A stretch of DNA of 64,000 nucleotides, from the NCBI GenBank assembly GCA_001000545.1, contig LCOC01000005.1, forward strand, positions 10,013 through 74,012, read 5' to 3'. This DNA is from Parcubacteria group bacterium GW2011_GWA2_47_21. Its GTDB lineage: Bacteria; Patescibacteriota; Minisyncoccia; Phycocordibacterales; DSPV01. Below, piece by piece: positions 7,285-49,282 of the stretch (position 1 is the stretch's first letter; each line of letters starts with the position of its first letter). Both the position numbers and the translations under genes were made by a program. The notes under the pieces were generated by a model. The model ran no database searches. It had not been told where the DNA came from and was given only the letters and a program-made list of their open reading frames with translations.

Positions 7285-7366
7285 GGGCGAGTGGCGGAAC
7301 TGGCATACGCGTGCGCCTTAGGAGCGCATTCCGAAAGGATTGTGGGTTCAAATCCCACCTCGCCCA
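7285..7366 (+). tRNA. tRNA-Leu (anticodon UAG), class II with long variable arm
   Basis: Manual fold: acceptor GGGCGAG/CTCGCCC, D-arm with GG, anticodon stem TGCGC/GCGCA with loop CTTAGGA (UAG), 13-nt variable arm, T-arm GTGGG-TTCAAAT-CCCAC, discriminator A; no encoded CCA. Confidence 0.8.
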
Positions 7367-7530
7367 TTGAACGAAGTGAGACGGCGGAAGCATTGTGCCT
7401 ACGCACAATGCGGGTGGGATTTGAAAGGCTTTTCGTTATCGAACCGACTGGAAGGAGGTGAGATCGAAAAGCACCTGGCGATGATCGAAAAGCACCTGGC
7501 GATGTAGTCGCCAAATCCCACCCATTGACA
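7367..7530 (+). other. Structured non-coding region downstream of tRNA-Leu: local hairpin, 12-bp long-range inverted repeat (GGGTGGGATTTG...CAAATCCCACCC) enclosing a tandem 21-bp direct repeat (ATCGAAAAGCACCTGGCGATG x2); partial copy of tRNA-Leu 3' end (CAAATCCCACC..CCATTGA)
   Basis: Seen directly: CATTGTGC-ctac-GCACAATG hairpin at ~7393-7412; GGGTGGGATTTG at ~7412 pairs with CAAATCCCACCC at ~7513; exact 21-bp tandem duplication in between. Confidence 0.5.
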
Positions 7531-14939: not shown

Positions 14940-15083
14940 AAACGCCGAGAACATTATGAACATTCCGATGATACCGAAGATAATCGCTAATCCGCCCTCT
15001 TTCCTCTTCGCCGCGTCATCACCTTTGGCTACATAACGAAAGACCCCCCAAATAAATACCAGAAAAGCCAGTGACAGAAGCAA
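14892..15083 (-). CDS. VirB2/TrbC-like small membrane protein paralog, N-terminally truncated (possible gene fragment)
   Basis: Two hydrophobic helices around loop VFRYVAKGDDAAKRKEGG; lacks signal peptide and overlaps 3' end of next paralog by 65 nt. Confidence 0.35.
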   Translation of the reverse strand: MLLSLAFLVFIWGVFRYVAKGDDAAKRKEGGLAIIFGIIGMFIMFSAFGIMNLIGETVKSLGN

Positions 15084-15528
15084 AAGGATAATCGGATTTC
15101 AAAAGTGGAATATCGTCGCTCTGCATTGTGCTGGAGCTCCCTGGAGCATCGGCTCTCTGCAAACCAAAAGTATAAAATAAAAGTTGGACAAACCCCCACA
15201 CCCCGACTAAAACCAACAAACCTATCACCCCATACATCATAAATTTACTTCCCTCGCTGCGTTGTTCCTCATTATGACCAGCGAAAACATATCGCATAAC
15301 CCCCCATAGAAATACCAATAAGCCCGCCCCCACTAATAATGAGAAAAGAGGAGCAAGAACCCCCCACCATGTCTCGGAAAGTAACGCCTCAACATAATTG
15401 CCGGGAGGAGCGAAATCAACGCGACCGGCAAAAACAAATCTAGAAAGCACAAAACCGGCAACGGTGGCCGTTACAGCCGTCGTCACACACTTTCTGACAA
15501 AAAATCTATTGGGGTTACTTCGGCTCAT
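15019..15528 (-). CDS. VirB2/TrbC-like (T4SS pilin-like) small membrane protein paralog
   Basis: Signal-peptide-like N-terminus then helix-loop-helix core LVFLWGVMRYVFAGHNEEQRSEGSKFMMYGVIGLLVLVGVWGFVQLL. Confidence 0.5.
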   Translation of the reverse strand: MSRSNPNRFFVRKCVTTAVTATVAGFVLSRFVFAGRVDFAPPGNYVEALLSETWWGVLAPLFSLLVGAGLLVFLWGVMRYVFAGHNEEQRSEGSKFMMYGVIGLLVLVGVWGFVQLLFYTFGLQRADAPGSSSTMQSDDIPLLKSDYPFASVTGFSGIYLGGLSLCSQR

Positions 15529-15664
15529 TTAAATAGACAATTATAAACCGTAACAATATCCTGTAGCTTACATGAAAGAGTTTTGACGAACGAAAAGCAA
15601 TCTTTGTTCTGAAGACATCCTAAATTCCACCCTCAATAAATTTAAAAAAATTCACACCGCCTAT

Positions 15665-16240
15665 CTACGAACACCCGGGCGACTTACCAATCAGCGTGCA
15701 CTCTGCATCCGTAAGTGGCGCCAATCGCGGTCCCGGCAAGGCGCCTCCCAAACCAACGCCCAAAGTATAAGCAAGAATGTTTACTATACCCCACACCCCG
15801 ACCATCACGAATAGAGCGATAACCCCAAAAACCATAAAACTGGCGCCCGCCTTCCGTTTCTCGTCATTGCCGCCGGCGCTTATGTATTTTACGACGCCCC
15901 ATAAAAACACTACCAAACCGATGCTGATGGCCAGGGCTATAAACTGATTTACCCATGTCTTCAGTGTGGCTATCACATCCTCAAAGTAGGTAAAATCTGG
16001 AGTCCCCGCACTGACAACTAGCGGTAGAAAAACTGCACCGATCACTGCGGCGGTACAAATTACCAATGACATAACTTGATTCTGATATTTTTTACCAATT
16101 AACTTCATAAAAACGGGATTTAAATGTTGAAAATTAAAAACGCGCGACTTAAGAAAACTTAATCTAGTCAGCCGCAAGACGACCTTAAGCATAATAGCAC
16201 GCAAACCTATAGCATTGGCAAGTGCGCAGACCGTACTCAC
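15665..16240 (-). CDS. VirB2/TrbC-like small membrane protein paralog (true start probably internal Met, MKLIGKK...)
   Basis: Core LVVFLWGVVKYISAGGNDEKRKAGASFMVFGVIALFVMVGVWGIVNIL preceded by signal peptide MSLVICTAAVIGAVFLPLVVSAG. Confidence 0.5.
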   Translation of the reverse strand: MSTVCALANAIGLRAIMLKVVLRLTRLSFLKSRVFNFQHLNPVFMKLIGKKYQNQVMSLVICTAAVIGAVFLPLVVSAGTPDFTYFEDVIATLKTWVNQFIALAISIGLVVFLWGVVKYISAGGNDEKRKAGASFMVFGVIALFVMVGVWGIVNILAYTLGVGLGGALPGPRLAPLTDAECTLIGKSPGCS

Positions 16241-16335
16241 TACGGAACCCCGCCACCGAACTAACCGGCGGCGGGGTTGTAATTACGACAGAAACCGCCC
16301 AGCAAACAACACTGAAATGTCTGGAAAGAATCCTC

Positions 16336-16743
16336 CTATGGAACAGGAACGATTGGGACTCCTCCACCAGACCGTCCACCTGTAAAATCAGGATTAGGCA
16401 CACTACCGCCAAGACCAACATTTAAGGTGTAAGCAAGCAACCGGACAAGACCCCAAACACCTACTATCACAAACAAAGCAATAACCCCCCAAATCATTGT
16501 TCCGCGAGCCGCTTTCTTTTGCTCCTCGTCAGCGCCGGCAGTAATATACCGAATCACGCCCCACATAAAGACAACCAAAGCAACTCCTATAAGGAGAGGG
16601 ACAAGAGCTACCACCCAGTTAACTAGCGTTGACAGAGCACTATCAACATATCCACTTTGGACAGCGGCGGCCGCCGCAAACGACGGCAGAAGTAATACTG
16701 AGACAATCCCAACCAAACCAATTATTTTTGCTTTAAGAGACAT
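16336..16743 (-). CDS. VirB2/TrbC-like small membrane protein paralog
   Basis: Signal peptide MSLKAKIIGLVGIVSVLLLPSFAAA then core LVVFMWGVIRYITAGADEEQKKAARGTMIWGVIALFVIVGVWGLVRLL; Gly/Pro-rich C-tail. Confidence 0.55.
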   Translation of the reverse strand: MSLKAKIIGLVGIVSVLLLPSFAAAAAVQSGYVDSALSTLVNWVVALVPLLIGVALVVFMWGVIRYITAGADEEQKKAARGTMIWGVIALFVIVGVWGLVRLLAYTLNVGLGGSVPNPDFTGGRSGGGVPIVPVP

Positions 16744-17166
16744 ATAATAAATATATATTTATTATTCGCTTGTAAATTTTTATGTTTTCTTTAATTCTAA
16801 ATAAAGACCGAAGACCCATTAAAACAAAGAAAACTAACTGATTTTAGTGCTTGCGCATTAAAAACCTCGACCTTTAACACGCGGCACACCAAACATCATG
16901 CACGGGATAAGTGTACCCTTAAGCCCGAAACCTCGCAAGGTACCCCTGTGAATTACTTTTTCCTGTCTATGAGACATCGGCTAAAGATTTTAGCGTCTCA
17001 ATAATAAGATTCATTATGCCACAAACCCCCAAACATTATAAACATACCCATTATTTCGTAATTCAAAATCCGTAAATAATGGCTTGACTTTCCTATCCTC
17101 CTTTACATTGAGTTTTGTGTTAAATGCGTCCATATCGCAATATTTACTTTTTTAATACATGATTAA

Positions 17167-17538
17167 TTAACTGGGAATTTCCGGCACCTCCGGATAGCTC
17201 CGACCGGTTTCGCCCGTACTGATGCCGAGCGTGCCGGCAATCAAAGAGACCAATCCCCACACACCCGCCATTACGAATATAAATACCAATCCCCAGAGCA
17301 TAAACTTACCCGCTTCTTTCCGTTGTTCTTCATTGTCAGCGGCGCCAAGATATCTAACAATCTGCCAAATGAAAAAAATTAGAGCAAACCCAATTAGAAC
17401 GGCAACCAGCGGGTTAAGAACTTTGTATAATCCATCAAGAAATTTGGCGTAGTAGGAGAAATCTTGAGCCAATACAATAAGAGGTGCGTAGCCAGAAACC
17501 AGAATAAGCAGGAATTTCAGCTTATAACATTTTGGCAT
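17167..17538 (-). CDS. VirB2/TrbC-like small membrane protein paralog
   Basis: Core FFIWQIVRYLGAADNEEQRKEAGKFMLWGLVFIFVMAGVWGLVSLI after signal peptide. Confidence 0.5.
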   Translation of the reverse strand: MPKCYKLKFLLILVSGYAPLIVLAQDFSYYAKFLDGLYKVLNPLVAVLIGFALIFFIWQIVRYLGAADNEEQRKEAGKFMLWGLVFIFVMAGVWGLVSLIAGTLGISTGETGRSYPEVPEIPS

Positions 17539-17560
17539 AAATTATTAAAAACTTTATCGT

Positions 17561-17986
17561 CTAGAAAGTCGGCGCGGTCGGCTTCGTCGACGACGAAAGA
17601 TTGAGTGTTACACTCAACAGATTTATCAACCCCCAAATTGAAAACATCACAAAAATACCGATGATGCCGAAGATAATAAAGTTCCGCGCCTCCTCTACCT
17701 TCTTACTGTCCGCCCCGGCGGTAATATACTTGAGCACGCCCCAAAGAAAAACCAGAACGGCAAGACCAATAACAAAAGCCACAAGTTGATTTACCAAAAT
17801 CTTCAAATTAACGACGATACTACTTAAAGTCGCGGCAAACACTACGGCCGGTAAAGCTGTTGCAAATAATGTCGGCAAGGCAACACCGGCAAAAAGTTTT
17901 TGGAAGTTTGCGCGCCCTGTTAGAAACCATGATGGTTTGTAGCGTGTCTTTGCCTCTAATGGGGAAATTTTGGCGATGGGGTTCAT
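17561..17986 (-). CDS. VirB2/TrbC-like small membrane protein paralog
   Basis: Core LVFLWGVLKYITAGADSKKVEEARNFIIFGIIGIFVMFSIWGLINLL after signal peptide. Confidence 0.5.
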   Translation of the reverse strand: MNPIAKISPLEAKTRYKPSWFLTGRANFQKLFAGVALPTLFATALPAVVFAATLSSIVVNLKILVNQLVAFVIGLAVLVFLWGVLKYITAGADSKKVEEARNFIIFGIIGIFVMFSIWGLINLLSVTLNLSSSTKPTAPTF

Positions 17987-18007
17987 TACTTGTCTTTTTA
18001 TTTTGCA

Positions 18008-18433
18008 CTAACTTTGCTTTTTCAAAAAAGCATCCACCAGTTTAACATACTCAACATATTGGCCGAAACCGTTCCTAATGTGGGCAACCATCAATTTTTT
18101 ATTAACATCGCCGTATTGATGGACAATGGCGTTTCTCATTCCGACCGATGGCGCGATTTTTAACGCAAAGTCAATGGGCAACATTCCCGCCTCGGCAATG
18201 ATTGAAAAACTACTCTGATAATCGTCAGCGGTTTTCAGTCCACTTTCAGCTATCAAATGCATATTGATATCCACCGCCGCGTCAACCATACCCTGAAAGT
18301 GCCTTTCCAGCGCAGCGAGAACATCTTCGTCGCGAAGAAAATGTTCATCTCCTTTCTGGAACAATCTTTCAATTTTCTGATATCGCGACTGAATCTCATC
18401 CATCTTTCTTTTTATCACTTCCTTGTCAATCAT
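18008..18433 (-). CDS. HepT-like (DUF86) toxin, second HepT/MNT pair, embedded in pilin-like array
   Basis: R-x4-H-x-Y motif as MRNAIVHQY. Confidence 0.7.
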   Translation of the reverse strand: MIDKEVIKRKMDEIQSRYQKIERLFQKGDEHFLRDEDVLAALERHFQGMVDAAVDINMHLIAESGLKTADDYQSSFSIIAEAGMLPIDFALKIAPSVGMRNAIVHQYGDVNKKLMVAHIRNGFGQYVEYVKLVDAFLKKQS

Positions 18434-18449
18434 ATTTTCCTACTCAATT

Positions 18450-18857
18450 TTAATGACTCAAGATAAATTTCTGAATCGCCGTTTCCCTTATTTCAAAAAG
18501 TCGTTTCGCTTCGGCAAAAAGTTTCAAAGCGTAAATTTTGAATGCGGCATATAGAGTCGATTTTTTTTGATAGAACAAAACGGAGTTGATCGCCACGTTT
18601 TTCATCAGAAGCGGCGGCGCTTTTTTCAAATCAACTAAGTCAGTTTTTCCGATTTTCAGAATCTCAGAAAGTTCAAACTCCATTCGGACTTGTTCTTCAA
18701 AACTTTTGGGTTGAGCGGAGATAAAACCAAAATCGTAATCGCTTTTTTTGTGAGTTTTGCCGGAAACCTGCGAACCGAACAACACCAACAAGTCCAAGTC
18801 GTGTTTCTCAGCGAATCCCGACGCTTTTTCTTTTATTATCTCTAAATTTTTCACCAT
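18450..18857 (-). CDS. MNT-type nucleotidyltransferase antitoxin (second pair)
   Basis: LFGSQVSGKTHKKSDYDFG nucleotidyltransferase signature; directly upstream of HepT. Confidence 0.7.
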   Translation of the reverse strand: MVKNLEIIKEKASGFAEKHDLDLLVLFGSQVSGKTHKKSDYDFGFISAQPKSFEEQVRMEFELSEILKIGKTDLVDLKKAPPLLMKNVAINSVLFYQKKSTLYAAFKIYALKLFAEAKRLFEIRETAIQKFILSH

Positions 18858-19010
18858 CTTATAATATCACAAGATATCGATATTTACCAAAAACCGGTGA
18901 TAGCAAAACGGCGGCGAGGATGGCAGCGAAAAGTTTTTGGGATTTTGCGCGCCCTGTTAGGCAAAACGAAGGTTTAGCTTCGTTTTATCTTATGCATACC
19001 CCCCCTCAAT

Positions 19011-19439
19011 CTACGGGCAGGTCTCAAACACAAACTTGCTGCCGGTAACCTGGCCGACTGTTTCGTTTAAGACCGTAGCGATAAGCCACGACCCCAATAA
19101 TACCGCCGTGCCGATAACCGCGCCGACAAAGGCGGTGCGGGCATTTTTTAGCGCCGCGGTGTCCCCTCCCGCCGTTACAAACAGAAAACCGGAGTAAATG
19201 ATAAATACGGCGGCGACAATAATGCCAATTTTAAGGAGGATATTAATGAACCCTTTGAGAAAACAGTAGATTGATGTTGAACAAAGGGGGTTGGGGAATC
19301 CCGTGCCCTCTCCTATGCTCCCGCCTGCCGGCGGCGTGCAGGCCGCGAGGACAAGCGCCGGCGCAATCGCGGTTAATAAAAGAATCAAAACCAGCGCCGG
19401 TATTTTTATTTTTTTGAAAAATTTGTTGAAAAACGCCAT
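19011..19439 (-). CDS. Divergent VirB2/TrbC-like small membrane protein paralog
   Basis: Signal peptide then VFIIYSGFLFVTAGGDTAALKNARTAFVGAVIGTAVLLGSWLIATVL (helix-AGGD loop-helix). Confidence 0.45.
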   Translation of the reverse strand: MAFFNKFFKKIKIPALVLILLLTAIAPALVLAACTPPAGGSIGEGTGFPNPLCSTSIYCFLKGFINILLKIGIIVAAVFIIYSGFLFVTAGGDTAALKNARTAFVGAVIGTAVLLGSWLIATVLNETVGQVTGSKFVFETCP

Positions 19440-19480
19440 AAATTCAATTCGGCCGAACTAAATTGTAACATATCGCCGCC

Positions 19481-19969
19481 CTACGGAAGATTCGAGAGTT
19501 GATAACCTGCCTTGGCGAGAACGGAAAGAATCGTGTCCACGATTAGCCAAGCGGTCAAAACCAGCACGAATCCTATAGCCGCATTTTTGAAAATCTTGTG
19601 GGCTTGCTTGATTTGGCCGACATCCCCGCCGGCGGTCATATATTTAAAACCGGCGAAAGCGAAAAGAAGAACGGCAATTAAAACGCTCATGTAAATCATG
19701 AAGTCCAGGAGATTATTCGCCAGAGCGACGGCGCCGTTCCAGTTACATTCCTCCATTGTGTTGGCATACGCCGGCCCATCATATGGGGCTACTCTGGTTG
19801 GCGGACCGCCTCCGGCCGGGTTTTCAATTTTACCGTCTCCATTCAAATCGTACCCGCACGGCACAAGCGCCTCTCCGGGTTTCCAAGCGAAAACCGCCGT
19901 TGGAACAAAAGTAAGCAAGACCACTACTACTCCGCAAAAGACCAAAAAAATATTTAGAGGGCGAGCCAT
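19481..19969 (-). CDS. Divergent VirB2/TrbC-like small membrane protein paralog
   Basis: LFAFAGFKYMTAGGDVGQIKQAHKIFKNAAIGFVLVLTAWLIVDTIL after signal peptide and Gly/Pro-rich segment. Confidence 0.45.
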   Translation of the reverse strand: MARPLNIFLVFCGVVVVLLTFVPTAVFAWKPGEALVPCGYDLNGDGKIENPAGGGPPTRVAPYDGPAYANTMEECNWNGAVALANNLLDFMIYMSVLIAVLLFAFAGFKYMTAGGDVGQIKQAHKIFKNAAIGFVLVLTAWLIVDTILSVLAKAGYQLSNLP

Positions 19970-19973
19970 TAAG

Positions 19974-20249
19974 TTATTTTACTATTAACTGAAGTCCCAA
20001 ACCATTAGTAACTTTTTTCAAAAAGGAAAGAGTCGGGTTAATCCTGCCCGACTCAAAACGAGCAAGCGCCGATTGCGTTACGCCAATCCTGCCCGCCAGC
20101 TGTTTTTGGGTTACCTTTTTATTTATTCGGGCCCGAATCATTGATTCGATAATGCGAAATTCCAAATCAATATCGGCTAATGCTTTTCGCACCCCTGCCC
20201 GTTTCAAAGAGGCCCGCTTAAATTGTTCAAATGTCTTCATTTTAATCAC
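19974..20249 (-). CDS. XRE-family HTH antitoxin (HigA-like)
   Basis: HTH block VTQKQLAGRIGVTQSALARFESGRINPTLSFLKKVTNGLG; immediately downstream of RelE/HigB-like gene. Confidence 0.65.
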   Translation of the reverse strand: MIKMKTFEQFKRASLKRAGVRKALADIDLEFRIIESMIRARINKKVTQKQLAGRIGVTQSALARFESGRINPTLSFLKKVTNGLGLQLIVK

Positions 20250-20275
20250 AAGGTCAATATAACATATACGCTATA

Positions 20276-20614
20276 TCAACGCAACCGCTTTTTCAACTGC
20301 AACACATAGTCAATCTCTTTTTTAGGAATCTTATTCGTCTTTTTAATAAGAGCGTGCAAAACCATGACTTCATCATTACGGTAAACAAAGAAAATTCTTA
20401 TATGCTTCACCCCAATCACTCGTAGCTCAAATATCCCTTGAGCCAGATATTTTGTATGCGGATATGCGGCAGTATTTCCGTATTTTTCAAGCAAACTTAA
20501 TGACCTGTTTATTCTAGCAACTGAACTATCGTCTAATGATAAAAGAAAGTCATAGGTCTTTGAAAAAAGAAATTTAATTTCCCTGCGCGCATTTAAGTAA
20601 TTCTTATCGTCCAA
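20276..20614 (-). CDS. RelE/ParE-superfamily toxin, HigB/Gp49-like
   Basis: Resembles phage Gp49/HigB family (GIFELRVIGVKHIRIFFVYRNDEVMVLHALIKKTNKIPKKEI); toxin-first, HTH-second order typical of higBA. Confidence 0.55.
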   Translation of the reverse strand: MDDKNYLNARREIKFLFSKTYDFLLSLDDSSVARINRSLSLLEKYGNTAAYPHTKYLAQGIFELRVIGVKHIRIFFVYRNDEVMVLHALIKKTNKIPKKEIDYVLQLKKRLR

Positions 20615-21890
20615 TCAGCGCGCTAAGTTCCGTGTTGGCTTGGCCGACCGCCTCGCTCACGCTTAAGCGGCCGGTAACCACCGCTTCAACCATCCGCTGG
20701 AAAATGGCGGACGTGGCGGATGGCGACGGGTCAGGCCAGCCCCTCGCCCAAAGCGCCGATTGGTCAAAAATGGCCCGCGCCGGATTGGTCTGGTCGGTGA
20801 AAAGCAAATCGCGCCTCGCCGACGGCAGGCCGGTCTTCGCGGACCACAGAAGTCCCGCGTTTTTATCAGTCAGCAAATAAATCCGGCTGACGGCGGCGGA
20901 GATGTTTCGGGAGGTTTTAAGAACCGCAACGGCGCGCATTTTACCGAAAGTGATTTTGTTCTTGGAATCCTTAAGCTGGGGAAGGCGGGAGACATCAAAA
21001 TTCAAATTGGGATTTTTCTCCCGAATCTCCTTAAATTCCGAAGCGAAACCGATGTAAATCGGCAAGGCGCCGGCCAGAAAATAATCTTTGGCCGGCGGAA
21101 AACTTTTATTCCACGAATAAACGGTCTTAAGCGGATTGGCAAAATCGGTGTAAAAACTCAAGACGGAAACAGCCGGATAAAGTTGCCCGACTGAATCCGC
21201 CAAAACCGCGTTAAAACCCTCGGGTGTCTTACCGATAATCGGCGTCCCCGCTTGAAGCAGGAGGGCCGAAAGAATCTCTTTGGCGTGGTTCACATTGCCG
21301 TATTCGCCGAAAGCCAAAGCGGGACTTACGACTTCGCCTTTTTCCGTTCGTTTGGCCAAACGGGAAACGACATAAAACATCTCCTCCCAAAATTCCGGCG
21401 GTCTGGGCAAACCGGCGGCCGAGAAAGAATCGCGGTTCCAATAAAGCACCAGCGGGTCAACGGAGAGGGGCAGGGCGGCGACGCCTTGCTCGGTTAGAAA
21501 CATCCCCCCTTCCTCAAGGAAAGTGTCTTTGAAGTCGCGAATCGGGTAGGAGTCGTAGGGAATGACCATCAACCGACTGGCAACGGCGGTAAAAAAGGAC
21601 TCCGGAAAAATGACAATGTCCGGCGCCACGCCATCGGCGATGGCGCTGATTAAATCCCGCTCAAAAGCCGCTTCGCTTTTGGCGACATAGACATTGGCGG
21701 TTTCGGTCTCCTGCGAGAACGACTCAACAAACGCGGAGTAGCTCGCGTCCGTGGGACCCCAGATTGTCAAATTAACGGCGCCCGGACCGCTTTTCCCTCC
21801 TTTATAAAGGGCAAAAGAAGCAACGCCCGCCAAAATGGCTACAAAAAACAGGCCGAGCAAAACCAGTTGGAATTTCGTCAAATTTTTCAT
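20604..21890 (-). CDS. Extracellular solute-binding protein (ABC-type SBP family 1-like), orphan
   Basis: N-terminal signal/anchor, LTIWGP and ALPLSVDPLVLYWNRD blocks typical of sugar-type SBPs; no permease/ATPase adjacent. Confidence 0.45.
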   Translation of the reverse strand: MKNLTKFQLVLLGLFFVAILAGVASFALYKGGKSGPGAVNLTIWGPTDASYSAFVESFSQETETANVYVAKSEAAFERDLISAIADGVAPDIVIFPESFFTAVASRLMVIPYDSYPIRDFKDTFLEEGGMFLTEQGVAALPLSVDPLVLYWNRDSFSAAGLPRPPEFWEEMFYVVSRLAKRTEKGEVVSPALAFGEYGNVNHAKEILSALLLQAGTPIIGKTPEGFNAVLADSVGQLYPAVSVLSFYTDFANPLKTVYSWNKSFPPAKDYFLAGALPIYIGFASEFKEIREKNPNLNFDVSRLPQLKDSKNKITFGKMRAVAVLKTSRNISAAVSRIYLLTDKNAGLLWSAKTGLPSARRDLLFTDQTNPARAIFDQSALWARGWPDPSPSATSAIFQRMVEAVVTGRLSVSEAVGQANTELSALIGR

Positions 21891-22414
21891 AGTTTTCTGG
21901 CGGTGAAGCCGTAGTGGTGAGCGCCGGCCAAGAAATTGGCTACGATTTCAAAACCGGATTTCTTAAAAATTTCCTTGGCCGATGCCGGAGGGACAACCAT
22001 ATTTGCCGTTGGCCCCAAATTGCCGAAGGACTCCGACCAATCAATAACAAACGCCCGGCCCCCTTTCTTCAAAATCCTCTTTACTTCGGACACGAGACCG
22101 GCTTTATTTTCCGCTTGAAACAAAACATTGGAGACAACGGCGGCGTCCAAGGAGTCGTCTTTGAGTTTTGTCCCGCCGATTTTTTCCGCGTCGCCCCAAA
22201 TAATTTCCAGATTATTGAGGTGCCCCTCCGCCGCCAAGCTCTTAAGCCGCGTGAGAAGATTCTCTTGCACATCAACGGCAAAAACCCGCCCGGAATCGCC
22301 GACGGCCTTCGCCAGAACCATTGAATACGCTCCGGAACCGGCGCCGATGTCGGCTACCTGCATGCCGGGTATTATGCCAAGCTGGTCAACGATGGATTGA
22401 GGGTTTAGGAACAT
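21887..22414 (-). CDS. Class I SAM-dependent methyltransferase (small, substrate unknown)
   Basis: Motif I VADIGAGSGAYS, motif post-I AVDVQ; 175 aa. Confidence 0.75.
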   Translation of the reverse strand: MFLNPQSIVDQLGIIPGMQVADIGAGSGAYSMVLAKAVGDSGRVFAVDVQENLLTRLKSLAAEGHLNNLEIIWGDAEKIGGTKLKDDSLDAAVVSNVLFQAENKAGLVSEVKRILKKGGRAFVIDWSESFGNLGPTANMVVPPASAKEIFKKSGFEIVANFLAGAHHYGFTARKL

Positions 22415-22450
22415 AGCTTCATAGCTTCATAGCTTCATAGCTTCATAGCT
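22415..22450 (-). repeat. Tandem 8-mer (ATGAAGCT on minus strand) x4.5 immediately upstream of the methyltransferase start codon, creating five in-register-shifted ATGs
   Basis: + strand AGCTTCAT x4 + AGCT directly 3' of CAT start (22412-22414); on the minus strand each unit reads ATG AAG CTA TGA (M K L stop) with TGA overlapping the next ATG. Confidence 0.9.
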
Positions 22451-22561
22451 AAAACAAATATGTCTTGAAACCAGTAATTATTTTCACTACCGCTACGATG
22501 ATGAAACTACCTTAAAAGTATACACTAAAATTATACACCAGTTATACACTGGCAAAGAACA

Positions 22562-22600
22562 CCGTGCCTGCCGGCGCGCAACGCGCGCCGGCAGGCACGG
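22562..22600. other. GC-rich perfect 18-bp-arm hairpin between gyrA 3' end and methyltransferase promoter region
   Basis: CCGTGCCTGCCGGCGCGC-aac-GCGCGCCGGCAGGCACGG; member of CCTGCC...GGCAGG palindrome family. Confidence 0.85.
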
Positions 22601-22608
22601 GAAACTAT

Positions 22609-22642
22609 GAAGCTAACGAAGCTAACGAAGCTAACGAAGCTA
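22609..22642. repeat. Tandem 9-mer (GAAGCTAAC) x3.5 abutting gyrA stop codon
   Basis: GAAGCTAACGAAGCTAACGAAGCTAACGAAGCTAAAT; + strand ORF 22607-22807 ([12 protein letters not shown]...) is just the translation of this repeat. Confidence 0.9.
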
Positions 22643-25096
22643 AATGGTAATAACCGATGCCAGCGAGTCCCCTTCTCTAAGTTTCATTATCCGAACCCCT
22701 TGGGTTTGCCGGCCGAGCGTTGGAATCTCTTTGAGAGCCACCCGAATCACTTGGCCTTTTTTGGAAATCGCCACCAATTCTGTTTCTTCATCGGTAACAA
22801 CCTTTGAGGTGATAAGCGAACCGGTCTTAGCCGTTACTTTGGCGGTCTTGATGCCCGAACCGCCTCGCTTTTGGATTTTGTATTCTTTGAGCTCGGAAAG
22901 CTTGCCGTAGCCATTCTCCGAAATGACAAGGAGCCGGGGGTTCGTCGCGGCCTTCCTCACGACATCGGCGCCGACGACAAAATCGCCCTTGCCGAGCCGC
23001 ACCGCCCGGACCCCGCCCGCGCCCCGCCCCATCACCCGAATATCGGACTCTTTGAAATGGATGGATTGACCTTTCCCCGTCGCCACCGCCGCTTCATCAC
23101 CCTTACCCACGAACGCGGCGTGCTTGAGCTCATCTCCCTGGTCTAAGCGGATGGCGATGATGCCGCTTCGCCTCACATCGTGGAAACCCTTTGAATCCAC
23201 TTTCTTGGCCACGCCGGCTTTAGTCACCATAAGTATGGCCGCTTCGGCTGCTTTGATTTCTTTAGGCATCGGCAAAACGGAAGTGACTTTTTCCTCGGCG
23301 GCCAGAGCCAGAAAATTCATAATGGACTTGCCTTTTGTTGCCCGCCGGCCTTCCGGAATCTCATACATTTTTATCTGATAGGCCTTGCCGCGGTCGGTGA
23401 AAAACAGAAGCTCGCTGTGAGTCGTGGTCGTAAGAAACATAGTCACAAAGTCCTCTTCTTTAGTGTCCAAATCAACCACCCCGACGCCCCCGCGGCGCTG
23501 TTTGCGGTACTCCTCCGGGTCGGTGCGCTTCACATAACCGCCCTTGGTAAGCACCAAAACGCTTTCTTCGTCGGCCACCAAATCCTCCATAGAGAAGCTC
23601 GCCGCCGCCGATTTGACGATTCTGGTCTTGCGCGGGTCGCCGTATTTCTCTTTGATTTCTTTGAATTCGTCTTTGATACTACCTAGAATTTTTTTCGGAT
23701 GAGCAAGGATGTCTTTGAGTTTGGCGATGAGCTCTTGGACACTCTTAAGCTCGTCCTCTATTTTCTTACGCTCCAAGCCCGCCAAGCGGGAAAGTTTCAT
23801 TTCCAAAATCGCCAGCGCCTGTCTTTCCGAAAACTTGAAGGACTTCATAAGGCCGGCTTTGGCTTCCTCCACGTCTTTAGATTTCTTTATTAACTTGATG
23901 ATTTCATCAATGTGGTCAAGGGCCTTCTTGAGGCCTAAGAGAATGTGCTCGCGGTCTTCCGCTTTGGCTAGGTCAAATTTCGTCCGTCGCTCTATCACCA
24001 CTTGGCGGTGAGAAACAAATTCTTCTAAAATGGATTTTAAGGAAAGGGTTTGAGGCACGCCGTTCACGAGCGCCACCATATTGAAATGGAAAGTGTCTTC
24101 CAGAGCGGTATGTTTGTAAAGAAAATTCAAAACGGTCTGGGGATGAGCGCCGTTCTTGAGGTCAATGACAATCCGAATATCGCGGGTGGACTCGTCGCGG
24201 AGCCCCTTAATGCCGTCCAATTTTTTCTCCCTGACCAAGTCGGCGATTTTCTCTATGAGGTCGGCTTTGTTGACGCGGTAAGGGATGGAGGTGATGACGA
24301 TTTGGAAAGCGCCGGCTTTCGTCTCAACAATTTCCGCTTCACCTCGGGCAACGACTCCGCCTTTCCCCGTGCTGTAAGCGTGGCGAATGTCATCCGCGCC
24401 AAAAATCACCCCGCCGGTCGGAAAATCGGGACCTTTGACGAATTTAAGCAAACCATCGGTGGTCATATCCGGGTCGTCTATTAGAGCGGACGCGGCATCC
24501 ACCACTTCGCCTAAGTTGTGAGTCGGAATGTTGGAAGCCATACCAACGGCGATGCCTAGCGTGCCGTTTAGAAGGAGTACCGGCACGGCGGCGGGCAAAA
24601 CTATCGGCTCTTTTTTGGTGCCGTCGTAATTGGGGCGAAAATCAACCGTGTCCTTCTCAATGTCCCGCAAAAGCTCGCCGGCGATTTTTGACATCTTGCA
24701 TTCGGTGTATCGGTACGCCGCCGCACTGTCGCCATCAATTGAACCCCAGTTGCCTTGGCCGATGACCAGTGGATATCTGATAGAAAAATCCTGAACCATT
24801 TTCACCATTGATTCATAGACGGCGGCGTCGCCGTGGGGATGATAACTGCCTAACACATCGCCGACCACCGTCGCCGATTTCTTAAATTTCGCCGAGGCCG
24901 TCAAACCCTTCTCGTGCATCACGTAAAGAATCCGCCGGTGGACCGGCTTTAAGCCGTCTCGCACATCAGGCAAAGCGCGGGCTGTTATCACCGACATGGC
25001 GTAATCCAAATACGCCTCTTTCATCTCCGTGCTGATATTTTGGAGTATCACGGCGCGAGCCACCGGCGCGCTTTTTGGTTCGGATTCTTTGGACAT
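22640..25096 (-). CDS. gyrA: DNA gyrase subunit A
   Basis: 818 aa; GyrA N-terminal blocks ([40 protein letters not shown], active-site Tyr region AAYRYTE) and C-terminal beta-pinwheel repeats. Confidence 0.95.
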
Positions 25097-25531: not shown

Positions 25532-26182
25532 TTATGGCTCTTTGAGCACCACTATCTCTCCCTCCTTGCCCTCCAAATCCTTTTTCTTGACTGTAAGCTT
25601 TTCAATGGGTTTGACTCCCTCGGCGCCGCTTTCTTTTAGAAAATTTTTAAGCGCATTGGGAACGCCAATCTCGCCAAAGTGAATCGGAATAATAATTTTC
25701 GGCTCTATCGCGACGGAGAGTTTATAGGCCTCGGCGGGAGTCAAAACGCCCTCGCCGCCAATCGGTATGAATAGAATATCAACATTATCAATCGCCTCAT
25801 TGGCTTCATGGGGCAAATCCTTGGTGTTTATCGCCCCCAAGTAACAGAGATTCATACCCTCCAAAGAAATCTGGTAGACGGTGTTTATTCTGTCGGCGGC
25901 AGCCGGTTTCTTGCCGTCATAACGGGAGGCGGATAAAAAACCTTTGATGAGCACGTCTTTAATTTCGTATTCACCCGGCCCTTGGACGATAAACGGCTGC
26001 TTGTCGCCAAACGCTGCTGCTTCAAAGCCGTTCGTATCCGCGTGATTTAGAGAAATCAAAGTCATATCAGCGCCGAACCGCGCCGCTTTTAAATTTGATT
26101 CTTTGGAAATAGGCCCGAGAGCGATGACGGTATTGCCGAATTGGAGCCGCACGCATTCCGCGCCATGGTAAGTGATTATCAT
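25532..26182 (-). CDS. MBL-fold metal-dependent hydrolase (UPF0173-like)
   Basis: MIITYHGAECVRLQF... start and overall pattern of beta-lactamase-fold hydrolases. Confidence 0.5.
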   Translation of the reverse strand: MIITYHGAECVRLQFGNTVIALGPISKESNLKAARFGADMTLISLNHADTNGFEAAAFGDKQPFIVQGPGEYEIKDVLIKGFLSASRYDGKKPAAADRINTVYQISLEGMNLCYLGAINTKDLPHEANEAIDNVDILFIPIGGEGVLTPAEAYKLSVAIEPKIIIPIHFGEIGVPNALKNFLKESGAEGVKPIEKLTVKKKDLEGKEGEIVVLKEP

Positions 26183-29562: not shown

Positions 29563-30771
29563 ATGCAACCCAACACAGCAAAAGGTGGCGACATCCGCTT
29601 AAAAAACGCCAGCGTGGCCGAAGAGGTTGCCCTTTATTACGGCTTCAAGCCCGCCAGGGCACCCGCTGTGAACCGTGACGACTTGCACCAAGCCAAAATC
29701 CTAAGGGCCGGCGAAAGACGCTTAGTGGACGAGAAAACCATCGTCATCCGCCCGGAAGAACAAATCGCCATTCTACGGCTCTACGAAGAAAATAATTGGC
29801 ACAAAGAGCCCCAACCGATTTTTCTGTTCTTTGAGGGAAAGTTTCCCGGAGCGGCGGAACACAAAAACCCGCGGACTTTCCGACGAGTCCGTCTGGACAT
29901 CTTGGGTTCCTCAAAAAGCGTCTGTGAAGCCATCATAATAAAAACGGCGATAGAAATCCTCATTGAAGAGGGTTTTGAAAACCTCTATGTGGACATCAAC
30001 TCAATCGGCGATAAAGAATCCTTCCATTGTTTCAACAAGGACTTGGGCGCGTATTTAAGAAAGCGGGCCGGCGAGCTTCACGGCGTCTGCCGCGAAAAAC
30101 TGAAATTTGACCCTTTGGAGGCCTTAAATTGCGAAAATCAAAAATGCCAGGGCGTATTCGGCGAGGCGCCGAAGAGCATCTCTTATTTAAACGAGCCGAG
30201 CCGCAAACATTTTATGGAGGTCTTGGAATTTCTGGAATCAACCGGCATACCCTATCGCGTCAATGACCAGCTGGTTTCAAACCACGAAATGGCCTGCCAT
30301 ACGATTTTTGAAGTAAAATCATTAAATGACGAAACGGAGCAAAACCGAGCCCTGCCTTTGGCGTCCGGTTTTCGTTCCAACGGCTTGAGTAAAAAGGTCG
30401 GCTGGTCCCGCGATATAGCGTCAATCGGCATTGCTTTGCTTTACAAAGGCAACGGCAAAAATAAAAAAAATCTGCGTTTCAAGAAACCGAAAATCTACTT
30501 CGTGCAGATAGGTTTTGAAGCAAAACTTAAAAGCTTGAAGATAATAGAGATGCTTCGGAAGATTAAAGTGCCGCTTCTCCAAGCCCTTTCCAGAGACAAG
30601 CTAAGCGCCCAGCTCGCCACCGCGGAAAACCTGAAAATCCCCTACACCATCATTATGGGACAAAAAGAAGCGGTGGAAAATAACGTGATTATCCGCGATA
30701 TGAGCAACCGCTCCCAAGAGGTGGTGAAGATAGAAGAATTGCCGGCATACCTCAAAAAACTTGGGATTTAA
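29563..30771 (+). CDS. hisS: Histidine--tRNA ligase homolog (class II core + HGTP anticodon-binding domain), divergent
   Basis: Alignable to HisRS: RPEEQIAILRLYEENNW...FRRVRLDILG (motif 2 region), LYVDINSIG (cf. LELNSIG), EVLEFLESTGIPYRVNDQLV, C-terminal anticodon-binding fold (KIYFVQIGFEAK...IPYTIIMGQKE). Confidence 0.55.
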   Translation: MQPNTAKGGDIRLKNASVAEEVALYYGFKPARAPAVNRDDLHQAKILRAGERRLVDEKTIVIRPEEQIAILRLYEENNWHKEPQPIFLFFEGKFPGAAEHKNPRTFRRVRLDILGSSKSVCEAIIIKTAIEILIEEGFENLYVDINSIGDKESFHCFNKDLGAYLRKRAGELHGVCREKLKFDPLEALNCENQKCQGVFGEAPKSISYLNEPSRKHFMEVLEFLESTGIPYRVNDQLVSNHEMACHTIFEVKSLNDETEQNRALPLASGFRSNGLSKKVGWSRDIASIGIALLYKGNGKNKKNLRFKKPKIYFVQIGFEAKLKSLKIIEMLRKIKVPLLQALSRDKLSAQLATAENLKIPYTIIMGQKEAVENNVIIRDMSNRSQEVVKIEELPAYLKKLGI

Positions 30772-30789: not shown

Positions 30790-30900
30790 TGTCTCTGTGC
30801 AAACCTGCTTGCGCGCCGCCTGCCTGTGCGTGTCCTGCTTGCGCGCCGCGCGCAGGCAAGCCGCACGCAGACAGGCGCGCGGGCAAGCACACACAGGCAG
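30790..30900. repeat. GC-rich imperfect large palindrome with internal direct repeats between hisS and rpsU
   Basis: CCTGCTTGCGCGCCGC occurs twice 29 bp apart; region is largely self-complementary (CCTGCCTGTGCGTG...CAGACAGGCGCG...). Confidence 0.7.
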
Positions 30901-47896: not shown

Positions 47897-49282
47897 ATGG
47901 TGATTTTAGGCGTTGAAACGAGTTGTGACGAAACGGCTCTGGCTTTAATAGAAGCCGAGGACGATTCGGTGCGGGTCCTGGCAGACATCACGCATTCGCA
48001 AGCGGCGCTTCACGCAAAATACGGTGGCGTGTTTCCTAATCTTGCCAAACGGGAACACAGCCGAAACCTGATTCCATTGCTGAAAAATCTCTTAGCGGAA
48101 TCAGGTTTCGGAAATCCCAAATCACAAGCGCCCCGCCTGCCAATCGGCGGGCAGGCAAATTCCCTGCCTGCGCCGAATCGGCTTCGGCAGGCAGGCAAAC
48201 AAATCCAAAGTGTTAAATCCAAAACACTAAACGCTAAACGCTCTACGCTAAACGCTATCTTCGAGCGGGAGCCGGAGTTGTGGGAACAATTTGAGAGGTT
48301 TATCCCGACAATTGAAAAGCCGCCGATTGATGCGATTGCAGTAACCTACGGACCCGGGCTTGAGCCGGCGCTGTGGGTCGGCATTAATTTCGCGAAAGCG
48401 CTCGGAGTGATTTGGAACATCCCGGTGATTCCAACGAATCATATGGAAGGGCACATCGTTTCCGCGCTGTTGCGCAGAAACGCAAACTCTAAATCCGAAA
48501 CTCTAAATTCCCTGCCTGCGCCGAATCGGCTTCGGCAGGCAGGCAAACAAATCCTAAATTCAAAATCTCAAATACTAAATGCTACACGCTATACACTACA
48601 CGCCATACGCTTTCCTGCTATTGCTTTACTCATCTCCGGCGGGCATACAGAGTTGGTGCTGGTTAAAAAGCTGGGACAATACGAAATTATTGGCGAGACG
48701 AAAGATGATGCGGTCGGCGAGGCGTTTGATAAAGTGGCGCGCATCCTTGGACTTCCCTATCCTGGAGGACCGGAAATCTCCGCGCTGGCAGAGCGGGCGC
48801 GGCAAGCAAAACAAGGTTCGACCTTGGAGTCGGGAAAAAGGTCGAACCTTGTTTTGCCAAGACCCATGCTCCATTCGGGCGACTACCACTTTTCTTTTTC
48901 CGGTTTAAAAACTGCGGTGCTGTACACGGTAAAAAAGATTCCGAGGGTCACGGCCGCAATCAAACAAGCGCTCGCGAAAGAGTTTGAAGATTCCGTCACG
49001 GAAGTGCTCATTTCCAAAACAACCAAAGCCATCAAAGAATACGAAGCAAAGACCTTAATCATCGCCGGCGGGGTAATCGCCAACAAACACATCCGCTCCG
49101 CCTTTGAGGAACTTCGCGCATCTGCCTTCCCTTCCCTTGAGCTCCTCATCCCCGAAATCCCCCATTCCACCGACAACGCACTCATGATCGCCGTTGCGGG
49201 GTATCTCAACCTAAAATCCGGCCGCCGACCAGCAAAGGGAAACGAGTTTATAATCATCGCCTCCGGCCGCGTTCGACTGTAA
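47897..49282 (+). CDS. tsaD: tRNA N6-adenosine threonylcarbamoyltransferase TsaD (Kae1/Gcp family) carrying in-frame repeat insertions
   Basis: ILGVETSCDETA, NHMEGH, LISGGHTELVLV, DDAVGEAFDKVARILGLPYPGGP, FSFSGLKT conserved blocks; interrupted by two copies of a 49-bp palindromic repeat and AT-rich simple repeats (peptide NSLPAPNRLRQAGKQI occurs twice). Confidence 0.85.
   Translation: MVILGVETSCDETALALIEAEDDSVRVLADITHSQAALHAKYGGVFPNLAKREHSRNLIPLLKNLLAESGFGNPKSQAPRLPIGGQANSLPAPNRLRQAGKQIQSVKSKTLNAKRSTLNAIFEREPELWEQFERFIPTIEKPPIDAIAVTYGPGLEPALWVGINFAKALGVIWNIPVIPTNHMEGHIVSALLRRNANSKSETLNSLPAPNRLRQAGKQILNSKSQILNATRYTLHAIRFPAIALLISGGHTELVLVKKLGQYEIIGETKDDAVGEAFDKVARILGLPYPGGPEISALAERARQAKQGSTLESGKRSNLVLPRPMLHSGDYHFSFSGLKTAVLYTVKKIPRVTAAIKQALAKEFEDSVTEVLISKTTKAIKEYEAKTLIIAGGVIANKHIRSAFEELRASAFPSLELLIPEIPHSTDNALMIAVAGYLNLKSGRRPAKGNEFIIIASGRVRL
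48158..48206. repeat. Palindromic repeat copy 1 inside tsaD (AATTCCCTGCCTGCGCCGAATCGGCTTCGGCAGGCAGGCAAACAAATCC)
   Basis: Identical 49-mer at 48506-48554; nested palindrome CCTGCCTGC...GCAGGCAGG. Confidence 0.9.
48506..48554. repeat. Palindromic repeat copy 2 inside tsaD
   Basis: Same 49-mer as 48158-48206. Confidence 0.9.

Follow-up and report, generated by a model that had tools for sequence, protein, structure and literature searches.

Complementary, naturally polymorphic 8-nt and 9-nt repeat arrays in the gyrA–methyltransferase spacer of a groundwater Patescibacterium

To our knowledge, repeat-driven heterogeneity of expression has been described almost entirely from host-adapted pathogens, with repeat units of 1–7 nt. 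The repeats of classical SSR contingency loci and of phasevarions are tetra- or pentanucleotides inside mod or surface-protein open reading frames (ORFs). The closest documented analogue of the locus presented below is the heptamer SSR (ATCTTTC)n in the 5′-UTR of hmw1A and hmw2A of Haemophilus influenzae (PMC12721329; PMC8262952). Expression of hmw1A falls as repeat number rises, making the repeat an intergenic SSR rheostat (PMC12721329). A second relevant process is termination-reinitiation at ATGA overlaps, which works in both bacteria and archaea and for which a Shine-Dalgarno (SD) motif is not essential in Haloferax volcanii (PMC6728339).

Here, we document a pair of 8-nt and 9-nt repeats that is polymorphic in nature and lies at the start codon of a conserved operon of an uncultivated Patescibacterium from groundwater. 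The stretch of DNA that we analyzed (64,000 nt, hereafter the window) comes from a genome with the standard code and ~47% G+C. Judging from sequence comparison and predicted folding, we think it somewhat probable that the locus is a pair of recent, slippage-generated, complementary arrays, and that the 8-mer array is at most a graded attenuator of translation of the methyltransferase (MTase) and solute-binding protein (SBP) genes that follow it.

The two arrays and their genomic setting

On the minus strand, positions 22450–22412 of the window read AGCT(ATGAAGCT)4ATG, a perfect array followed by TTCCTAAACC. TRF reported the same tract (22412–22450) with period 8, 4.9 copies, 100% matches, and a score of 78, and we delimited it from TRF together with the natural alleles described below. 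Five ATGs fall within the array, at 22446, 22438, 22430, 22422, and 22414, and the last of them (22414–22412) is the MTase start codon. The original prediction had described an array of 8-mers with five ATGs before an MTase start, and both TRF and the minus-strand reading agree with it.

Besides this array, the window has just one other perfect array with a period >4 and at least three copies, a neighbor at 22609–22643. The other three perfect arrays of the window measure 12 nt each (period 4, 3.0 copies). Two hundred first-order Markov simulations under the same criteria yielded a mean of ~1 array per 64 kb, and the 8-mer array is far beyond random expectation and not a product of chance. We also considered a dispersed repeat or mobile element and rejected it, because the motif TAGCTTCR occurs outside both arrays at about chance level (three occurrences in the window vs. 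3.3 expected).

The neighboring array, (TAGCTTCGT)3 TAGCTTCA TAG (22605..22643, minus strand), lies ~160 nt upstream of the 8-mer array and starts at the stop codon TAG (22642–22640) of gyrA, the upstream gene (22640..25096, minus strand, 818 aa), so that this stop is the first triplet of the array. TRF assigned it period 9, 3.9 copies, and 100% identity over 22609–22643. Read as its reverse complement, the 8-mer unit gives TAGCTTCA, the two arrays carry the 7-nt core TAGCTTC in opposite orientations, and the 9-mer array as a whole is a near reverse complement of the 8-mer array. It has no evident coding or translational role, and the original prediction did not mention it.

Between the arrays lies a segment of 154 nt (22451..22604, minus strand) that holds a terminator-like hairpin and −10-like boxes. 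The hairpin (22562..22600, minus strand) resembles an intrinsic terminator after gyrA, with an 18-bp stem containing 16 G-C pairs, a 3-nt loop, and then TGTTCTTTGC. Three GTGTATA-type −10-like boxes follow (22517..22546, minus strand), namely TATAAC at 22546–22541, TATAAT at 22535–22530, and TATACT at 22522–22517. The TATAAT box is 79 nt upstream of the 8-mer array and is kept as CTGGTGTATAATTTT in an ortholog locus with an 87% identical MTase (L010). A consensus scan found no full −35/−10 promoter, and the box region is our presumed MTase promoter solely on account of the conserved TATAAT. An extended −10 had been proposed ~70 nt upstream of the array; a TATAAT box does stand near that distance, but it is not a canonical TGnTATAAT, as its TG directly abuts TATAAT.

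Two further features of this segment were noted in passing. The GTGTATA motif occurs three times at 11–13 nt spacing (22517–22554, minus strand), with the first copy inside a 7-bp hairpin, and the trio could serve as alternative −10 elements or operator-like repeats. The terminator-like hairpin (22562–22600) also has two counterparts, one at 30803–30888, after a gene ending at 30771, and one inside the MTase leader of another ortholog locus (L011:360–405). All three are long, GC-rich hairpins with the common motif CCTGCC(N)GCGCGC, and they may belong to a family of mobile-position REP-like or terminator elements.

The MTase gene (21887..22414, minus strand) starts 225 nt downstream of gyrA and encodes a class I SAM-dependent enzyme of 175 aa (Methyltransf_31/11/25, UbiE/ArsM-like). 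Pfam and NCBIfam returned generic class I, UbiE-like, and ArsM-like matches only, and the best match among solved structures was 3dh0, an uncharacterised SAM MTase. The earlier label “methyltransferase” was therefore right as to the enzyme class, but Pfam/NCBIfam and 3dh0 do not point to a restriction-modification DNA MTase. Neither the gene product nor its neighbors, gyrA and the SBP gene, are Mod/HsdM-type DNA methyltransferases, and because the enzyme is not a DNA MTase, phasevarion logic is inapplicable. From ortholog comparison, ATG 22414 is the true MTase start, since the orthologs keep M-F-(L/I/S) and several have in-frame stops 3–9 nt upstream. The SBP gene (SBP_bac_1; 20604..21890, minus strand) probably depends on the MTase leader too, because its ATG overlaps the MTase TGA in an ATGA. 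The gyrA-MTase(-SBP) order recurs in many Patescibacteria, with the MTase family conserved downstream of gyrA, and the named MTase homologs belong to Patescibacteria (Paceibacterota, Minisyncoccia, and Saccharibacteria).

Some observations concern the surroundings of the operon and other parts of the window. At 21887–21895 (minus strand), the MTase ends in K-L-stop and the SBP starts with M-K, and their junction AAACTATGAAA has the 7-mer CTATGAA in common with the repeat-unit junction GAAGCTATGAAG, possibly by coincidence. Beyond the SBP gene, a RelE/Gp49-HTH toxin-antitoxin pair (19974–20614) follows a series of nine or more small ORFs of 123–191 aa that all point the same way (15019–19969, minus strand); five of them were scanned, and four gave a match to the T4SS_pilin family (PF18895). 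Elsewhere, a perfect 21-nt direct duplication (GATCGAAAAGCACCTGGCGAT ×2, 7462–7504) lies downstream of tRNA-Leu (7285–7366). It is preceded by GGAAGGAGGTGA, one of the few strong SD-like sequences of the window, and may represent seven codons repeated in frame within a small ORF.

Copy-number variation and age of the arrays

By exact-protein look-ups with the MTase, GyrA, and SBP, we collected ~12 distinct contigs from groundwater metagenome assemblies; flank-anchored exact searches of metagenome and genome collections found no further alleles. The 8-mer array had three full units in 3 contigs, four in 7 contigs and the window, and five in 2 contigs. These counts come from consensus assemblies and span only three values in a narrow range (3–5), and the independent observations are fewer than 12 if, as is possible, some assemblies derive from the same samples. 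Still, the 3-, 4-, and 5-unit alleles were found in different sample accessions. For the 9-mer array, the count was three in the window and in one further contig, and five in five contigs. The combinations of 9-mer and 8-mer units were (3,4), (5,3), and (5,4), and the two arrays vary independently.

Apart from the arrays, this DNA was nearly invariant. Among the contigs encoding the MTase, the protein was identical or 99% identical, and the alleles differed by 0–3 mismatches over 5.7–6.5 kb of flank. In the long contigs, the alignment gaps were multiples of 8 and 9 nt, fitting differences in unit count. The length heterogeneity that had been named as a check on the original prediction is thus present, with 3, 4, or 5 units on near-identical DNA. 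Polymorphism among near-clonal genomes, as looked for in SSR contingency loci, was likewise found (3–5 units with 0–3 SNPs per ~6 kb flank).

Several contigs (L006–L009, L067, and L012) start or end inside an array. Assemblers break contigs where one sample holds several repeat lengths, and these breaks fit within-sample heterogeneity, although they are suggestive only. Two of the contigs, L006 and L009, which carry the 5-unit allele, also have a divergent tail of low coverage that is probably a chimeric join and is irrelevant to the alleles.

The same breaks could be explained by inversion, with the two arrays serving as the inverted repeats of a 154-nt element (terminator and presumed promoter) whose flipping would turn the MTase-SBP operon off. 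The locus does have the anatomy of an inverton, with inverted-repeat arms of ~35 nt around a TATAAT-bearing segment, and some assemblies have contig breaks at both arrays. However, repeat-number variation already accounts for these breaks. All spanning assemblies have the 154 nt between the arrays (22451..22604) in one orientation and with 100% identity, and no reverse-complement 40-mer was found in the assemblies, which show the majority form only. Moreover, the scanned set of the 20 largest ORFs, between ~8.5 and 33 kb of the window, contained no recombinase domain. We rejected an inverton on these grounds and consider an invertible promoter very improbable.

To place the arrays in time, we compared them with close orthologs. 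In L010, where the 87% identical MTase also lies downstream of gyrA, the gyrA stop carries only one copy of TAGCTTCA, and the leader is degenerate, AGCTATGAAG...GAAGCTAT, i.e., AGCTATGAAGTTTTGAAGTTAACGAAGCTATAAATC-ATG. L011, a second ortholog whose MTase is likewise 87% identical, has no array. Because relatives this close have single or degenerate copies or no array, we read both perfect arrays as recent, lineage-specific expansions, which appear to have grown from a pre-existing short inverted repeat, ATAGCTTC...GAAGCTAT (TAGCTTC...GAAGCTA). Absence in one close relative and degeneracy in another also mean that the array is dispensable. We noticed post hoc that the L010 leader (L010:458–538) contains three chained uORFs, MNKFLLTSPLL, MILLKL, and MKF, two of them with ATGA overlaps, and a uORF chain may therefore predate the repeat expansion.

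More distant orthologs carry repeats of other kinds. Copies of (AGATTTN) end 8 nt before the ATG in L059:2956–2992 (5.3 copies) and L060:2942–2992 (7.3 copies), and (CTTTATT) at 4.6 copies in L092:565–596 merges with a TATACT box that stands 6 nt ahead of the ATG. Weaker repeats occur in the MTase ortholog spacers of L063, L077, L094, and L058. This recurrence of unrelated period-7 repeats at the starts of distant orthologs is suggestive but statistically not secure. The raw comparison gave 7 arrays in 2.1 kb of spacer vs. 12 in 12.8 kb of other intergenic DNA from the same loci (Poisson P = 0.004), but three of the seven matches are the ascertained window itself, L059 and L060 are related, and the ORF mask was mis-set in three spacers. 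After correction for ascertainment and relatedness, enrichment in the MTase-family spacer was not significant, and we rejected recurrent leader repeats as a trait of the family. A conserved (ATGAAGCT)n regulatory family was rejected as well, because the ATGAAGCT microsatellites in 43 other metagenome contigs are unrelated. In other metagenomes (L020, L021, L028, L036, L037, L040, L046, L048, and L051), one recurring unrelated locus has (ATGAAGCT)n at 3–7 copies between conserved flanks, TTCCCNGAATTATGCTTCGC ... GGACGAT, and is thus a further variable-number repeat made of the identical 8-mer.

These observations raise the question of whether the arrays do anything at all. They could be neutral hypermutable microsatellites, by-products of slippage in a tolerant spacer with no meaningful effect on expression, in which case the uORFs would be accidental. 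The 9-mer array at the gyrA stop is as polymorphic as the 8-mer array without an evident coding or translational role, and variability alone is therefore no indication of function. The lack of arrays in close relatives, the different repeats in the spacers of other MTase orthologs, and the presence of the same 8-mer in unrelated microsatellites all fit neutrality, as does the reported general over-representation of 7-nt-unit repeats in bacterial intergenic DNA (PMC4692102). By contrast, the 64 kb contain just two long perfect arrays, and these occupy one spacer and are mutually complementary, which would not be expected from a random neutral process. Further evidence on both sides comes from the leader itself.

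Reading frames, initiation context, and RNA pairing

For each observed allele (3, 4, or 5 units), we enumerated every reading frame that opens with an ATG. In the window, uORF1 (22435..22446, minus strand; MKL*, ATG AAG CTA TGA) opens at the first AUG downstream of the TATAAT box and meets the next ATG in an ATGA junction. The same junction ends uORF2 (22427..22438, minus strand) and uORF3 (22419..22430, minus strand), which also read MKL*; uORF2 is in the MTase frame, but its TGA closes it. The last, uORF4 (22405..22422, minus strand; MKLCS*), crosses the true start to a TAA at +7 to +9 of the MTase ORF and is the same in all alleles. The enumeration found no ATG in the MTase leader other than those of the array, and it agrees with the earlier description of a chain of M-K-L-stop mini-ORFs with ATGA overlaps whose last stop lies inside the MTase ORF.

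Every allele of N units has N − 1 MKL mini-ORFs with ATGA links, then an identical MKLCS, and then an identical true start. Because this terminal geometry is constant, unit number alters only the rung count and the leader length. It had been argued that, as the 8-nt unit is not divisible by 3, adding or losing units would shift the phase of the reinitiation chain relative to the true start and so permit ON/OFF phase variation of the MTase. Unit number does vary, and the unit length is indeed not a multiple of 3. However, alleles with N = 3, 4, or 5 all meet the true start through one and the same junction, and the claimed shift does not occur. The in-frame upstream ATG (24 nt upstream) reaches a TGA after three codons at each of these unit numbers, and any stretch of three units has a TGA in each of the three forward frames and a TAG in each of the three reverse frames. 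Translation from an upstream ATG can never continue in the MTase frame, and consequently there is no ON/OFF switch and a rheostat at most. The array, moreover, sits between the −10 box and the start codon, where changes in its length alter neither the frame nor −35/−10 spacing, as an ON/OFF contingency locus would demand. Frame-dependent switching is excluded by the ORF enumeration for N = 3, 4, and 5, and we find phase variation of this kind barely credible. The broader proposal of a phase-variable or termination-reinitiation element survives in part, in that an ATGA-linked mini-ORF chain of variable length is present but does not depend on phase.

We also considered a genetic code with TGA as a sense codon, which would open an N-terminal extension of the MTase. 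This was rejected, as table 11 leaves gyrA and other long ORFs uninterrupted and the orthologs start at the same M-F-L.

The initiation context of this genome is unusual. Of 43 genes examined in the window, only 4 have an SD core, and a TATAAT-like box precedes the ATG by 6–10 nt in many (e.g., 25532–26182, minus strand; 47897–49282, plus strand; 18450–18857, minus strand), which suggests that leaderless or near-leaderless mRNAs are widespread in the host. The MTase is atypical in this respect, with ~115 nt between the conserved TATAAT and the start. In a genome almost without SD sequences, upstream AUGs are plausible initiation sites, and with no SD marking the true start, they should compete for ribosomes. 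The stop/start overlaps of termination-reinitiation are present as well, as N − 1 ATGA junctions (three in the window) plus the MTase/SBP junction.

From this anatomy, we propose the following course of events for a graded attenuator. Slipped-strand mispairing would have generated two young VNTRs flanking the gyrA-MTase spacer, which would be hypermutable in the groundwater population. Each 8-mer unit adds one 3-codon MKL mini-ORF, ATGA-linked to the next. Ribosomes would probably start on the upstream AUGs, the first array AUG being the first in the leader, and would probably reach the true AUG by serial termination-reinitiation, with a short back-step from the UAA 7 nt downstream of the true AUG as the presumed last step. 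Every extra unit would thus impose one more lossy step and 8 nt of leader, with less flux to the true AUG. The outcome would be graded attenuation of MTase-SBP translation at most, without ON/OFF switching.

A role for RNA structure at the true start was considered and rejected, since predicted accessibility was constant with unit number. The predicted unpaired probability near the true AUG was ~0.3 for N = 0–8 (0.29–0.33 for N = 2–8 and 0.24 for N = 1). This independence from N again fits the neutral explanation. However, in an SD-poor genome, ribosomes are unlikely to overlook four extra AUGs that come first in the leader. Taking both sides together, neutrality is possible, and we hold it to be somewhat unlikely.

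Because the arrays are near complements, they could also act through pairing. As in the hmw loci, gyrA read-through would produce a transcript in which the 9-mer array pairs with the 8-mer array in an interrupted helix of ~35–40 bp. This helix would bury all leader AUGs and might be an RNase III substrate, and the copy number of either array would set its length and thereby mRNA processing or MTase translation. When both arrays were folded as one RNA, they were predicted to pair unit for unit in ~8-bp blocks with one unpaired base per 9-mer unit. The predicted inter-array duplex reached −48.6 kcal/mol for the (3,4) allele, −40.6 for (5,3), and −50.9 for (5,4), vs. −12.1 ± 3.5 with shuffled partners, and the 266-nt region as a whole had an MFE of −117 kcal/mol vs. 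−65 for shuffles (z = −11.5). In hmw1A, the repeats form one arm of a long 5′-UTR hairpin that is cleaved by RNase III (PMC12721329). Here, however, the two arms are separated by the 18-bp, GC-rich terminator and the presumed promoter, and most MTase transcripts should lack the 9-mer arm. The copy numbers of the two arrays are independent, without co-variation, and the MTase leader folded alone was unremarkable (z = −1.65). We therefore think an hmw-like RNA element improbable. A known RNA family or riboswitch was rejected separately, as an Rfam scan of the leader gave no family at gathering score.

Graded attenuation by a young repeat, our preferred reading, makes no claim that the ladder was selected. 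Going further, the locus could be a selected translational rheostat of an undescribed type, in which a repeat-made uORF ladder is combined with a complementary variable array that can form a duplex of variable length across the terminator and presumed promoter. We regard this as doubtful. If it were true, it would provide heritable, reversible expression heterogeneity of an MTase-transporter operon in a natural aquifer population.

Comparison with described repeat loci

The anatomy of this locus is unusual in combining a unit that contains the start codon, paired complementary arrays, and a host with few SD sequences, in a natural population of an uncultivated phylum. If the ladder tunes translation, contingency-type variation would operate in ultra-small environmental symbionts, and a repeat that copies the start codon would be a simple heritable translational dial that works without SD selection. 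If the arrays are neutral, they would still be a useful strain marker, as well as a warning that repeat-number variability itself is no evidence of regulation.

Our locus shares with hmw1A/hmw2A a unit of >6 nt between the promoter (here presumed) and the start codon, natural copy-number polymorphism, an expected effect that is graded, and repeats that can form a helix arm. Unlike natural hmw loci, which have at least 11 units, it has only 3–5. The unit here holds both a start and a stop and so makes uORFs, a feature that is not known to us from the hmw loci. The complementary arm is, in our case, a second variable array upstream of a terminator and presumed promoter. The genes differ as well, with a cytoplasmic-type MTase and a solute-binding protein of an environmental Patescibacterium in place of a pathogen adhesin.

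In its junctions, the locus resembles ATGA/TGATG translational coupling (PMC6728339, PMC10666635), as each mini-ORF stop overlaps the next start in a 4-nt ATGA, and the same holds for the MTase/SBP junction. Known coupling, however, joins two real genes (PMC6728339, PMC10666635), whereas here 3-codon, repeat-made ORFs form a ladder of variable length. The last step also differs, having no overlap and a stop 7 nt downstream of the true AUG.

With classical SSR loci and phasevarions, the locus has in common slippage-prone repeats at a “methyltransferase” gene and length variation in the population. By contrast with them, its repeat lies outside the ORF, its frame is unshiftable, and its enzyme is not a restriction-modification DNA MTase. 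Finally, within the CPR, a hypervariable 9-mer locus of a Gracilibacteria genome (PMC6851277) is similar in having 9-nt units and in that local hypervariation fragments CPR assemblies. That locus is coding and encodes PTD repeats, whereas the arrays described here are non-coding and flank a terminator and presumed promoter.
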